From Cupriavidus necator (GTDB lineage Bacteria; Pseudomonadota; Gammaproteobacteria; Burkholderiales; Burkholderiaceae), in the NCBI RefSeq assembly GCF_016127575.1, contig NZ_CP066020.1:330001-362000 (forward strand): a DNA stretch of 32,000 nt, in the 5' to 3' direction. The position numbers and the translations under genes are program-made. Shown here one piece after another: positions 3,341 through 13,609 of this stretch (the first letter of the stretch is position 1; every line of letters begins with the position of its first letter). Below the pieces are notes generated by a model that made no database searches, was not told the DNA's origin, and saw only the letters and a program-made list of their open reading frames with translations.

Positions 3341-3583
3341 TCAAAGCACCGCTTCGAGGCCCTTGCGCTCGATGAGGTTGAGCAGCTTCACAGAGGGGCC
3401 ACTCGGCTTCTTGTCGCCAACCTCCCATTTGCGAACGGTTGACAGGCTGGTGTTCAACACCGAAGCGAGCACCGCTTGGCTCAAGTGCAGATGCTCACGC
3501 AACGCCCGGCGTTCGCGGGATCGGCGAACTGCCCAGGTCGGCAAGGTGTTGCTGGCCGGCGGCAAGCAGTACCGCCGTGTCAT
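3341..3583 (-). CDS. XRE-family HTH protein (antitoxin-like); N-terminus uncertain or possibly truncated
   Basis: The C-terminal LREHLHLSQAVLASVLNTSLSTVRKWEVGDKKPSGPSVKLLNLIERKG resembles the HTH of HigA/YiaG-type regulators. The upstream part of track ORF 3341..3706 looks non-native. The start at 3583 is a guess. Confidence 0.5.
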   Translation of the reverse strand: MTRRYCLPPASNTLPTWAVRRSRERRALREHLHLSQAVLASVLNTSLSTVRKWEVGDKKPSGPSVKLLNLIERKGLEAVL

Positions 3584-3965
3584 GCGCGCCGCGCTCGCTC
3601 GCCAGTACAACACCACCCTGCCTGCCGTACAGGAAACGACCGGCGGCATCGGCATGCAACGCTCGCAACTCGGCGCATTTCTCGACGGTCTCGCGCCGAT
3701 GTTCAACGAACCGATGGGCCATCACCCCAATGGCACGCCGCTCTACCGGCGCTACGGCTGGATCGAAGCCGGTGCCGTGACCCACCTGATCTACCGGGCG
3801 GCCCCTTACCTGCCTACGCTCCAGGCCCGCGTGCTTGCTTTGTTCCAAGGCCCATCCGGACCGACCGCCGATGTTGAGGTCGAGGAACGCTTCCGCGGCG
3901 GTACCAGAATTGGCTCTCGCTGGGTCGGCGTGGCTGATCTCCACCCGCTGCAGGAGGCCGCATGA
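3582..3965 (+). CDS. Hypothetical protein
   Basis: Strong GC3 bias from about 3582 onward (MRAALARQYNTT...LHPLQEAA). The stop overlaps the next ATG (ATGA at 3962-3965). The start is uncertain because the frame is open from 3264. Confidence 0.5.
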   Translation: MRAALARQYNTTLPAVQETTGGIGMQRSQLGAFLDGLAPMFNEPMGHHPNGTPLYRRYGWIEAGAVTHLIYRAAPYLPTLQARVLALFQGPSGPTADVEVEERFRGGTRIGSRWVGVADLHPLQEAA

Positions 3966-4348
3966 GCGAATTCGACAAGGCGTTGCACCAGGAAGCGAAG
4001 GCACTCAGCGTGAACCTCGATGGCACGCCCGAGGCGCTCCTGACCGTGGCGCACGCCGGCTACAAGGCTTGGGCCAAGGAAGGCAACCTGCATTTCCCAG
4101 ACGAAACGCGCTACGCCCTGCTCCATGAGATCCTGCGTTACTGCGCCGACGAGTGTTTGCTTGAGTGCTATCCGTCGCAGGAGCGCCGCCTGCGCGAGAT
4201 TGCCGAGATGCTAGATCAGCGCTATCCGCGCTATGCCTGTACGCGAGCGCGTCTGCGTGCGCGCCGCAATCGCTACGGCAGGATCTGCGACGATGCACGC
4301 CGTGCCCCCCCTGCGTCTGCCAGCAATGATGTCACGTCTCAAAGTTGA
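3962..4348 (+). CDS. Hypothetical protein; the 3' end reads into the inverted repeat of the downstream element
   Basis: Translationally coupled to the upstream ORF, with coding-like codon usage. The last codons (NDVTSQS*) lie within the 17-bp repeat at 4331-4347. Confidence 0.6.
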   Translation: MSEFDKALHQEAKALSVNLDGTPEALLTVAHAGYKAWAKEGNLHFPDETRYALLHEILRYCADECLLECYPSQERRLREIAEMLDQRYPRYACTRARLRARRNRYGRICDDARRAPPASASNDVTSQS

Positions 4349-4940
4349 TGGGAGACCGATCGCAAACAAATCAATGGGTTACAAGGCACCGCCTCAAGTT
4401 AACTGAGCCAAATTCTCACAGAAACTGGTTAAAAGACGCAGCTTGTCTCACAGTAAGTGGGTACACGGAGACGACGGAGTGGAAAGAACCGCGTCGCTCC
4501 ACCTCCCTATCACATGGCCATGTGAAATCGCATACGCGCATGAGCGCGGAGAAAGTGTCCCGGCGAACGGTCGCCACGTGCTTATCCAGTGCGGCTGCGC
4601 GCGCGAGGGCGGCGCCAGAAGAAAATCGCTCGATACGCGAGACAGTCCTCCACGGTCAGCGATGACACCGCACGCCGACGCTCACACACGGCCCAGAGCA
4701 GCATGCGTCCCGCCTCCTTGCCCGGCTTCCCCTGTGGTCTTCAGTGCGCGATCTCACGAGTCCGCACAGGCAGATTCACCGACGACGCTCCAGTCGAAAC
4801 GCTTGTAACCTCACCGACATAGTAGATGCAGACTCCAGCGCGGCGCCCCCCTTCTGACATCATCAGCGCCTTTTACCCATTAACTTTGAGAATCCAACCC
4901 ACTAACTGTGAGACAAAACTCAACAACTTTGAGACGTGAC
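4331..4940. mobile_element. 610-bp module bounded by perfect 17-bp inverted repeats with nested subterminal repeats (MITE-like, or a recombinase/transposase binding-site array)
   Basis: GTCACGTCTCAAAGTTG (4331-4347) is the exact reverse complement of 4924-4940. An inner pair, 4444-4462 and 4897-4915, matches 18/19. Additional CTCAAAGTT / CTCACAG type repeats sit in opposite orientation at the two ends. The interior has visibly lower GC and no convincing ORF. Confidence 0.45.
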
Positions 4941-4942
4941 AG

Positions 4943-5041
4943 CGGATCGCGGGCATGCTCGATGCCGCCTACCCCCGCTACGCCTGTACCCGCGCAAAGC
5001 TCGCCGCGCGCCGCAACCATTATGGGCGGCCGCGATTCTGA
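4943..5041 (+). pseudogene. Diverged orphan copy of the 3' end of the 3962..4348 gene
   Basis: It translates to RIAGMLDAAYPRYACTRAKLAARRNHYGRPRF*, compared with REIAEMLDQRYPRYACTRARLRARRNRYGR in the intact gene (nt 4196-4284). A hairpin CCGCCGC-ATA-GCGGCGG follows it. Confidence 0.5.
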
Positions 5042-5122
5042 ACTCTCGCCTGCAAGCCATATCCGCCGCATAGCGGCGGCAGGGGTGTGGGATGGGTTCA
5101 AATTCAGTATATAACAGCGGGT

Positions 5123-6055
5123 ATGGCAAAAATGGACTCCCTCTGGCTCAGCAATCCCAGCCTGGCCTACCGTGACTGGCAGGCGCGTGAGGCGGCTGGC
5201 TCTGATCGCCGCCCTTTCTCCGCGCGCTCGATCGTCCAGCACCAGGCGATGTTCGAGAACTTCCGACGACACTTGCTGGCGAGGAGCGCGACCGTTGCCT
5301 CATTTGGCACCGCCGATATTGAGTCGTTTTTGCAGACGCCCGACGCTAGGTCATACTCTCCGGCCACACGCATGCGGTACGTGAAGCTGCTGGACCGCCT
5401 GTGCCGGCATCTGGTCTTCGCCGGTGTGCGCCTGGACAACCCAGCCGCCCTGATGCTTTCCGCCGAGCGCTGGCCAGACCAAGAGCCCACACCCCAGTTC
5501 CTTGACGAGGCCGAGGACGGGCGGCTGCAAGCCTATCTTCAATCCCCTGCCGACGATCTGTCCGGCTTGCGTAGCCGGGCGATCGTCGCGATGTTTCTCG
5601 CAACGGGGATTACCGCGGCGGAAGCGCGAGCCGCGCGTTTGGGGGACCTAGTGCCGGATACAAACCCGCCCTATCTCTTCGTGACGGGACATGGGGCGCG
5701 GGACGCGCGCACTGTTCACGTGGCCGAATTCGCTGTATCGCTACTTCAGGCCTGGCATGCCCGCCGCTCAACGCTTCCCGTCCACGGCGACCTGCTTTTT
5801 ACCCTTACCCCGGATGGCCGCCCCATCACCGACATGAGCTTTGGCCGGATCGTGGCCGCCGCGCTGGAAGCGATAGAATTCTCCGGCGTCGAGCCAAGTC
5901 CCCGCACGCTGCGCAATACTTTTTGCCGGCGTCAGCTGCTCGCTGGCTGTACGCACGACGACGTGACCCGGATCTTAGGACTTGCCAGCAATCGCACTTG
6001 CGACCGCATTGCCGCTACCATTTCGGCTGCCCGACGGCGAAAAATCCTGAAATGA
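5123..6055 (+). CDS. Tyrosine-recombinase (XerC/XerD/phage-integrase)-like protein with degenerate catalytic residues
   Basis: Overall XerD-like layout: ...FLATGITAAEA..., ...GHGARDARTVHV..., ...SPRTLRNTFCRRQLL..., ...ILGLASNRTCDRIA.... Start taken at MAKMDS (5123). The track ORF begins at a GTG at 5087. Confidence 0.7.
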   Translation: MAKMDSLWLSNPSLAYRDWQAREAAGSDRRPFSARSIVQHQAMFENFRRHLLARSATVASFGTADIESFLQTPDARSYSPATRMRYVKLLDRLCRHLVFAGVRLDNPAALMLSAERWPDQEPTPQFLDEAEDGRLQAYLQSPADDLSGLRSRAIVAMFLATGITAAEARAARLGDLVPDTNPPYLFVTGHGARDARTVHVAEFAVSLLQAWHARRSTLPVHGDLLFTLTPDGRPITDMSFGRIVAAALEAIEFSGVEPSPRTLRNTFCRRQLLAGCTHDDVTRILGLASNRTCDRIAATISAARRRKILK

Positions 6056-6165
6056 TCGGGGTTTCAGCGCATCTCACTATTGCACTCGCGCTTGCATTTG
6101 CTATTCTTCGCGGATGCGATGTACGCGATATCCCGCGCGCACGCATTTCTTAATCAGGTACGACT

Positions 6166-6609
6166 ATGGCCACGAAAGCATCCGCGAAGACTGCAACGAA
6201 GACCGCCGCAAAGAAGGCTGCCCCCGCAAAGAAGGCTGCCCCGGCGAAGAAAGCCGCTCCGGCTAAGAAGGCTGCCGCAGCCTCCCCGGTTGCCAAGCCG
6301 CTGAAGGACACCTTCAACAAGTCGAGCCTCCTCGCCCATCTGGTCGCCCAGACCGAACTGGACAAGAAGACTGTCCAAACCGTTCTGACTCACCTGGAAA
6401 ACACCATGGTGAGCGCGATCCACAAGAAAGGCGCAGGCGAGTTCACCTTCCCCGGCCTGTTCAAGGTCTCGGCCATCCAGGTTCCGGCCACGAAAAAGCG
6501 CTTCGGCAAGAATCCGTTCACGGGCCAAGAGCAGTGGTTCGCCGCCAAGCCGGCCAGCGTGAAGGTGAAGGTTCGCGCGATGAAGAAGCTGAAGGACGCC
6601 GCGATGTAA
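6166..6609 (+). CDS. HU/IHF-family DNA-binding protein with an N-terminal Lys/Ala-rich histone-H1-like tail
   Basis: The N-terminal KKAAPAKKAAPAKKAAPAKKAAAA repeats are followed by an HU fold signature: ...GEFTFPGLFKVSAIQVPATKKRFGKNPFTGQEQWFAAKPASVKVKVRAMKKLKDA. Confidence 0.85.
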   Translation: MATKASAKTATKTAAKKAAPAKKAAPAKKAAPAKKAAAASPVAKPLKDTFNKSSLLAHLVAQTELDKKTVQTVLTHLENTMVSAIHKKGAGEFTFPGLFKVSAIQVPATKKRFGKNPFTGQEQWFAAKPASVKVKVRAMKKLKDAAM

Positions 6610-6638
6610 TCGCTACGGTTCCCGCGAACCAAAGGAAA

Positions 6639-6675
6639 AGCCCCGAGATTTTGCTGATCTCGGGGCTTTTTTTTC
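6639..6675. terminator. Bidirectional rho-independent terminator between convergent genes
   Basis: AGCCCCGAGAT (6639-6649) pairs with ATCTCGGGGCT (6657-6667). It is followed by T8 on the plus strand and preceded by an A-rich run that serves the minus strand. Confidence 0.7.
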
Positions 6676-6740
6676 GTAGGCTCTCTGAGAAGAGAGAGTG
6701 CTGAGGCGTAGCAAATTACCACCACGCCAACTTGGAAGTG

Positions 6741-10041: not shown

Positions 10042-10065
10042 GGGGTCGATGCGTCAAGGACGCGG
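10042..10065 (-). promoter_or_regulatory. Copy a of the conserved island motif GGGTCGATGCGTC-N4-GACGCGG (written as on the plus strand)
   Basis: GGGGTCGATGCGTCAAGGACGCGG, 82 nt upstream of the minus-strand start at 9960. Confidence 0.5.
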
Positions 10066-13190: not shown

Positions 13191-13609
13191 TTTGCTATTC
13201 AGAACCTGCAATGCCACGCCCCTTCCGGGGGCGTGGCACTCAGGGAGCGGCGCACAATTGCGCGCTGCTCGATGCTGAGGACGTAAAGTCGTCCTCGTGC
13301 AGCATGGTCACGCTGCACAGCAACCCATTTCGCGAACCCACAGGTTCGGCCGCAGGTTCACGGATCGGCTCGACGGCTGCCGTTCTGCCCGGGAGGGGCC
13401 TTTGAGAGAGAGCTCCACATGATCCCGGGCTCGAACGGTGTCAGTCGCGTGCGCTCACAAGGAGGCACCGCGAGAACGCGTATTACGAGCTGATGAGGGA
13501 AGTGTTCGGCGAAAACACTTAGCACAAGAAATATCCACACTGGTAGCCAACCAGTCGGCGCGTGCGCATATGCACGACTTGAAGCAGAAGATGGACTCGC
13601 CAGGAGTCA

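Follow-up and report, generated by a model that had tools for sequence, protein, structure and literature searches.

A plasmid-borne protein of Cupriavidus necator with a predicted tyrosine recombinase fold and a replaced catalytic set: a candidate non-catalytic DNA-binding clamp

Megaplasmid pHG1 of Cupriavidus necator H16, an experimentally tractable and non-pathogenic strain used for production, carries a gene whose product has the predicted fold of a tyrosine recombinase and in which five of the six catalytic residues are replaced, only Arg II being kept. We consider it moderately probable that this protein is unable to cut and rejoin DNA and has been retained as a non-catalytic DNA-binding clamp. 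Judging from comparisons with homologues, the gene is kept by purifying selection, and the non-canonical residues are themselves conserved. The gene was found in a stretch of 32,000 nucleotides, hereafter called the window, and the features discussed below are located as follows:

3962-4348, forward strand: gene of the 'p110' family (110 aa), whose 3' end runs into a 610-bp module
5063-5079, forward strand: hairpin (inverted repeat) with a 7-bp stem and a 3-nt loop, approximately 24 nt upstream of a TATA-like box
5103-5114, forward strand: the TATA-like box, TTCAGTATATAA, probably a -10 promoter element, with 8 nt separating it from the ATG at 5123
5123-6055, forward strand: open reading frame for the tyrosine-less protein with the predicted recombinase fold (310 aa)
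6166-6609, forward strand: HU-fold gene with an N-terminal Lys/Ala/Pro tail (Pfam Bac_DNA_binding, E 1.3e-11)
6636-6670, no strand assigned: strong terminator-like hairpin with a 14-bp stem, after the HU gene

Catalytic positions and predicted structure

Positions 3900-6700 of the window are 100% identical to positions 302756-305556 of NC_005241.1 (pHG1 of C. necator H16), where the open reading frame corresponds to WP_041688722.1 (303979-304911) and is annotated as "tyrosine-type recombinase/integrase". The GC content at its first, second and third codon positions (0.66, 0.52 and 0.72) is the typical coding pattern for this replicon, so the frame appears to be truly coding. The protein consists of an N-terminal extension of approximately 30 residues with a W-P-[YF]-W motif, followed by a core-binding domain and a domain with the catalytic fold. 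It is matched by the Pfam profile PF00589 (Phage_integrase) with 37.3 bits (gathering score 27.1; E 2.9e-9), which places it in the superfamily. The matched part runs from profile position 10 to 161, out of 172, and therefore leaves the position of the tyrosine outside. When all PDB sequences were searched with phmmer, XerD (1a0p) came first (E 4.5e-7), and a profile built from 20 diverse homologues matched XerD with an E value of 6.8e-15; XerH and XerA were also matched, with an identical mapping of residues. The catalytic positions read as follows in the phmmer and profile alignments, each with its composition in 84 aligned homologues:

Arg I: T164 (ATGIT, ATGLR in XerD); T 81, S 2, A 1
Lys: H190 (GHG, GKG in XerD); H 38, R 36, K 4, others 6 (among them G, L and T)
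His I: R261 (SPRTLRN, SPHVLRH in XerD); R 83, Q 1
Arg II: R264, kept (same motif); R 84
His II: L287 (LGL, LGH in XerD); L 84
Tyr nucleophile: A297; A 36, R 33, L 5, F 3, others; Y never

The sole residue of the R-K-H-R-H/W pentad that is present is thus R264, and the C-terminal helix that should bear the nucleophile has an alanine in its place. An earlier note on this DNA, made by eye, had described a recombinase-like protein stripped of its catalytic set, with the motifs ATGIT, GHG, RTLRN and LGL and no nucleophile. Both kinds of alignment bear this description out in every detail, and mapping of the catalytic sites placed no catalytic residue elsewhere in the protein, whether it was aligned to XerD, XerH or XerA. 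The same note's statement that the last 55 or so residues contain no tyrosine proved conservative. The tyrosines of the protein are residues 16, 78, 86, 138 and 184 only, so its final 126 residues are free of them. Y86 was considered as a substitute nucleophile, as it is invariant; it lies in the core-binding domain, aligned to a leucine of XerD in a helix of the other domain, which makes such a role unlikely.

A model was obtained with AlphaFold2 from the family alignment (mean pLDDT 88.1). Foldseek aligned approximately 300 of its columns to full-length tyrosine recombinases with a probability of 1.00, the matches being XerA (E 4.6e-11), XerH bound to difH (TM 0.68), Cre-lox (TM 0.67), lambda Int, and Tn1549 Int on DNA (TM 0.70). 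Complexes of mutants of Tn1549 Int, namely R225K (6en2, 6emz) and Y379F (6emy), were also among them. With high confidence, the modelled protein adopts the two-domain tyrosine recombinase fold, in the open C-shaped clamp form seen in DNA complexes; the superposition that the earlier note had proposed as a check thus agrees with its assignment of the fold.

As the defining catalytic features are absent, the protein is not filed here as a recombinase or integrase; it is recombinase-like in shape only. The database label and the GO terms for DNA integration are misleading, and mobile-element finders that take genes of this kind as markers would miscall these loci. The XerC and XerD equivalog models TIGR02224 and TIGR02225, whose cut-offs are 335 and 330 bits, give the protein only 59.8 and 56.2 bits. 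NCBIfam has no model specific to this group, giving only weak Xer matches. No PADLOC family matches either the recombinase-like protein or its HU neighbour, and a role in a defence system is therefore unsupported.

A conserved family and its relatives on secondary replicons

A word-indexed search returned 152 full-length homologues at 46-95% identity, mainly from Cupriavidus, Ralstonia and Burkholderia, and a homologue is present in 105 plasmid records of PLSDB; 80 further loci were taken from species-representative genomes. The genomes behind these homologue and locus counts are related and do not constitute independent samples. The tblastn match runs unbroken over approximately residues 1-294 at 83 of 86 loci, the exceptions being a truncated copy on pMOL30, a copy that starts at residue 32 and a locus with two copies. 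The 84 intact full-length homologues that were aligned all read through, at 44-94% identity.

Conservation extends to the replaced positions and their surroundings, with T292 and T299 invariant (84 of 84) and R295 present as arginine in 82 of 84 sequences. Medians of dN/dS by the Nei-Gojobori method are 0.16-0.22 for pairs at dS 0.05-1.0 and 0.30 when every usable pair is taken, and no pair is higher than 0.56; the window gene compared with its relatives gives 0.12-0.28. Values of approximately 0.15-0.3, the 84 intact homologues and the near-invariant replacement residues together point to purifying selection. This settles the choice between retention and decay that the earlier note had left to a comparison of homologues. 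The family is basic (median pI 9.4), and 12 of its 65 columns conserved in at least 95% of sequences are arginines. Its most conserved segment is the N-terminal extension, with a mean column identity of 0.73 (0.64-0.67 elsewhere), and the C-terminus past the helix that normally bears the tyrosine is variable, with a median length of 8 residues.

An exhaustive HMMER search over 1.84 billion cluster representatives gave 213 proteins at E <= 1e-10. Nearly all of the 88 full-length representatives contain the N-terminal motif W-x3-P-x3-[FY]-x2-W, which XerD does not have, and nearly all share R150, Arg II and the subsequent asparagine; in these proteins, the Arg I column is mainly threonine and the His II column mainly leucine. 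A FastTree tree was computed for 85 representatives of 50%-identity clusters, midpoint-rooted for drawing only and with weak deep branches. In the half that contains the window protein, none of the 47 representatives has the tyrosine; in the other half, 24 of 38 keep it, usually having lost other pentad residues. Only one representative in the whole tree is fully canonical.

Relatives also occur on chromosomes of C. necator. A fragment on chromosome 1 (G000:C1:3666278-3666814, locus L089) covers residues 122-303 at 69% identity with two TGA stops and is a genuine pseudogene copy of the plasmid-type gene. Chromosome 2 carries an intact paralogue of 340 aa at 32% identity (G000:C2:176502-177416; L096:6440-7462). 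Further loci of such distant paralogues are L092:4485-5498 (reverse strand) and L095:6582-7595. In a sample of 300 Burkholderiaceae species, a tally that includes the unpublished genome G217 and is unchanged by it, a match was found in 158. The close plasmid type is patchy in its distribution; the type with 31-37% identity is near-universal in five large genera, each sampled with 27-29 species of which 23-28 have it, and its usual location is the second chromosome. A Rep3-type initiator gene and a KfrA-like gene adjoin the paralogue in one complete genome, where it is no more than 5.5 kb from the start of chromosome 2, and in four other complete genomes it is within approximately 6 kb of a contig end. 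Its catalytic columns are degenerate as well, with lysine in place of Arg I, glutamine in place of His I and phenylalanine or methionine in place of His II, which widens the finding to secondary replicons in general.

It is possible, though we hold this only tentatively, that the pHG1 protein belongs to a large and old clade of tyrosine-less clamps that serve as dedicated maintenance or architecture factors of Burkholderiaceae secondary replicons. If so, the recombinase fold would have been repurposed as a replicon-specific chromatin or origin-region protein, a class undescribed so far. Several genomes (G179, G187, G299 and G063) have three to seven matches each, plasmid and distant types together, and at one locus (L017) two plasmid-type copies lie approximately 6 kb apart; such multiple matches are consistent with one copy per plasmid or island.

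Neighbouring genes and the upstream element

The surrounding region is a plasmid establishment and maintenance backbone of Burkholderiaceae megaplasmids. In the window, it comprises an SbcCD-like pair, a phiC31-gp3-like gene, genes for a bactofilin, a DUF932 protein, a large ParB and an SNF2 helicase, and an E2/JAB/ThiF/alpha-helical cluster which RefSeq names PRTRC on related plasmids. An sbcD RNA (Rfam RF01757, 161.9 bits) is located at 13202-13356 on the reverse strand, upstream of the operon with the gp3-like and SbcCD-like genes. A motif of approximately 29 nt containing a GCGTC-NNN-GACGC hairpin recurs in the backbone genes, at 10043, 13610, 17406, 20847, 21996 and 28549.

Neighbouring genes were surveyed by tblastn of representative neighbours over 85 loci. 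In the Cupriavidus clade, the HU gene lies downstream of the recombinase-like gene and in the same orientation at 31 loci, and its adjacency, pointed out in the earlier note for this one locus, is hence a real conserved linkage. In the clade of Burkholderia and Paraburkholderia, an H-NS gene is found instead at 20 loci, approximately 650 nt upstream and likewise co-oriented. A gene for either nucleoid protein lies within 6 kb at 48 of the 85 loci, mostly adjacent and co-oriented, which agrees with a family encoded together with nucleoid-protein genes on large plasmids; it is absent from that distance at 37. With HU in one lineage and H-NS in the other, two unrelated histone-like families adjoin the same protein, and this is the strongest hint of its function. 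At 21 loci of the Burkholderia and Paraburkholderia clade, the slot of the Cupriavidus HU gene is occupied by an unannotated gene for a protein of approximately 159 aa with no Pfam or PADLOC match, 72 nt after the recombinase-like gene (for example at L002:8004-8483 and L003:8026-8481).

The recombinase-like gene forms a unit of one gene, preceded by a conserved element of its own. From 6055 to 6166, no site resembling a terminator was called, and the hairpin at 6636-6670 could possibly be the end of a two-gene transcription unit formed with the HU gene, as far as the sequence indicates. The upstream element consists of the hairpin at 5063-5079, approximately 20 G-rich bases and the TTCAGTATATAA box, in this order, and ranges from Cupriavidus to Pararobbsia and Caballeronia. 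The box is present at 72 of 85 loci; its CAGTATA core is invariant in 49 aligned loci, and at 52 of the 72 the first in-frame start codon lies 6-8 nt past it. Because of this short distance, the box is suggested to be a -10 element for a leaderless or nearly leaderless mRNA; a simple and strict sigma-70 scan did not call it. The 7.4-Mb genome contains one exact copy of the box and two one-mismatch copies, on chromosome 1, with no excess over a control pattern, so a regulon defined by it is ruled out.

Across the 49 loci, 93.9% of the cells of the hairpin are paired, compensatory changes occur in five of its seven pairs, and none of the shuffled or slid controls matches the observed pairing or covariation score. 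It occurs once in the window and is not a copy of the motif repeated between 10043 and 28577, from which it differs in sequence and orientation. The hairpin may serve as a terminator or insulator for upstream DNA, or as an operator. Together with the TATA-like box, it is the only conserved DNA element near the gene, and the two may be only a terminator plus a promoter.

The DNA between the p110 gene and this element behaves differently. The 610-bp module at 4331-4940 is single-copy in the genome, and it is missing from the closest homologous locus (94% protein identity). The match to a 1.19-Mb C. necator plasmid begins exactly at position 4941, the right edge of the module. Among the 84 other loci, three have the module's right end directly upstream of the hairpin (L024:5842-5926, L026:5728-5927 and L019:3783-4030). 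One of these shows 100% identity over 85 bases next to a gene with only 71% identity, suggesting recent and repeated insertion near the gene. Ends of the module also occur on other plasmids, far from the gene. The module thus looks like a small mobile element that, on these sequence matches, would have landed near the gene more than once. As it is not a conserved partner, the conserved function of the protein cannot depend on it, and the tie between the two that the earlier note had drawn does not hold in general, nor does a role of the module as binding partner of the protein.

The 3' end of p110 is present a second time, at 4943-5041. At 21 loci of the Cupriavidus clade, the p110 gene ends approximately 84 nt upstream of the recombinase-like gene, and at 24 it is preceded by a DUF6884 gene. 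In the window, as on a second Cupriavidus plasmid (L008:4112-4444 and 5759-5974), a full copy of p110 and a partial 3' copy stand on either side of inserted DNA. On that second plasmid, the inserted genes would be of the DUF2188 and HTH kinds, going by how the related P-10 and C. basilensis plasmids are annotated and not by an annotation of the plasmid itself. This site acts like a hot spot for insertions. A small antitoxin-type frame (HTH_3, MqsA-like; 3341-3706, reverse strand) overlaps the region of a truncated DUF6884 gene.

A non-catalytic clamp, alternative explanations and known systems

In the proposed mechanism, the protein would wrap DNA in the manner of Xer or Cre, with Arg II and the conserved basic residues H/R190, R261 and R295 gripping the backbone where the scissile phosphate would lie. 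Strand exchange would not take place; instead, together with the HU or H-NS protein of the plasmid, the clamp would organise, silence or regulate plasmid DNA. We infer DNA clamping because of the high isoelectric point, the conserved arginine columns, the basic character of the former active site and the clamp shape of the model. As the C-terminus is short and variable, the contacts that join active recombinases into cyclic tetramers are probably absent. Several observations weigh against this reading. No candidate binding site was found in the DNA near the gene, including any core site with inverted arms; a classical recombinase core site has two arms of 11-13 bp, and the conserved 7-3-7 hairpin, only 17 bp long, is together with the TATA-like box too small to be one. 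The 37 loci with no nucleoid-protein gene nearby also count against it, and the retained basic pocket would fit a residual chemical role equally well.

Such a chemical role would mean that the protein is still an enzyme, one with non-canonical chemistry that uses another nucleophile or acts on another substrate in a remodelled pocket. The near-invariance of T164, R261, N265, L287, T292, R295 and T299 goes beyond what maintenance of the fold needs and is in line with this idea. We judge it very improbable all the same, as the catalytic domain has no conserved tyrosine, and none at all past residue 184, Arg I and both histidines are lost, and the lysine position varies between H, R, K, G, L and T; to our knowledge, no tyrosine recombinase or type IB topoisomerase works on Arg II alone. 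The protein could also pair with or regulate an active tyrosine recombinase, such as the host XerC/XerD or one of the many mobile-element recombinases of pHG1, without cleaving DNA itself. It would then sit on a half-site or take the place of a protomer, and so direct, limit or block strand exchange. XerD plays a structural role in XerC-only reactions, and the complete fold with its core-binding domain, the retention of Arg II and of the basic pocket, and the fact that the nearest sequence relatives are simple recombinases of the Xer type would all suit a partner of this kind. Both the role and this mode of action seem unlikely to us, since at the surveyed loci an active recombinase gene is not consistently adjacent, a conserved dif-like or cer-like site was not seen beside the gene, and the segment that makes protomer contacts in Cre and Xer is the one that is poorly conserved here.

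A protein that has lost DNA binding altogether and works as a protein-protein scaffold or regulator would explain why the family-specific N-terminal extension, which has no counterpart in XerD, is conserved best of all. It would leave unexplained the basic pI, the many invariant arginines in both DNA-facing domains and a model that takes the DNA-bound clamp shape of the Cre and XerH complexes, and we therefore consider it improbable. As for a decaying remnant of a former integrase, which the missing catalytic residues, the truncated copy on pMOL30 and the two-stop fragment on chromosome 1 might bring to mind, the family data (intact homologues, low dN/dS and invariant replacement residues), along with the conserved promoter-like element, make it scarcely credible, and it was rejected.

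Among known systems, the protein shares the two-domain architecture and the length of XerD/XerC, XerH and XerA, simple recombinases with no arm-binding domain. The Xer proteins are its best sequence, profile and structural matches, and the LR motif of box II with Arg II is common to both. Unlike them, the pHG1 protein has Arg I, Lys, His I, His II and Tyr all replaced, carries the conserved N-terminal extension of approximately 30 residues, has no conserved C-terminal tail, and is encoded by an accessory, plasmid-borne gene.

In its setting, on a large plasmid beside HU or H-NS homologues, the gene resembles those for Pmr, Pnd and Phu of pCAR1 and for Sfh of R27. On pCAR1, the plasmid-encoded homologues of H-NS, NdpA and HU act jointly on host transcription and on the stability and transfer of the plasmid, and such nucleoid proteins, borne on large conjugative plasmids and binding DNA with no catalysis, are a well-established category (PMC6606824). 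These plasmid nucleoid proteins have H-NS, HU or NdpA folds, whereas the pHG1 protein has a recombinase fold. If the clamp does act together with plasmid-encoded HU and H-NS, it would add a new fold to the plasmid-borne chromatin proteins, which govern the establishment of megaplasmids and second chromosomes and their coexistence with the host. A recombinase fold in the role of a plasmid nucleoid protein is not described in the openly searchable literature, nor did we find there a description of a natural bacterial family of tyrosine-less proteins with this fold; searches for pHG1 integrases, PRTRC, Burkholderia origin regions and the protein and locus accessions returned nothing on it, be it expression, ChIP or phenotype data.

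The nearest conceptual precedents would be the Crypton-derived domains of animals and the Y-to-F or R-to-K recombinase mutants made in the laboratory. The former, reportedly described by Kojima and Jurka in 2011 as animal DUF3504 genes, are said to have retained the recombinase domain under selection, presumably for DNA binding or regulation; unlike the pHG1 protein, they are reportedly eukaryotic, transposon-derived and part of multidomain proteins. Inactive point mutants of Cre, lambda Int and Tn1549 Int demonstrate that the fold can bind and bend its DNA site with no nucleophile. Such mutants carry a single change, whereas in the pHG1 family five of the six residues have been replaced naturally, and the replacements are fixed.
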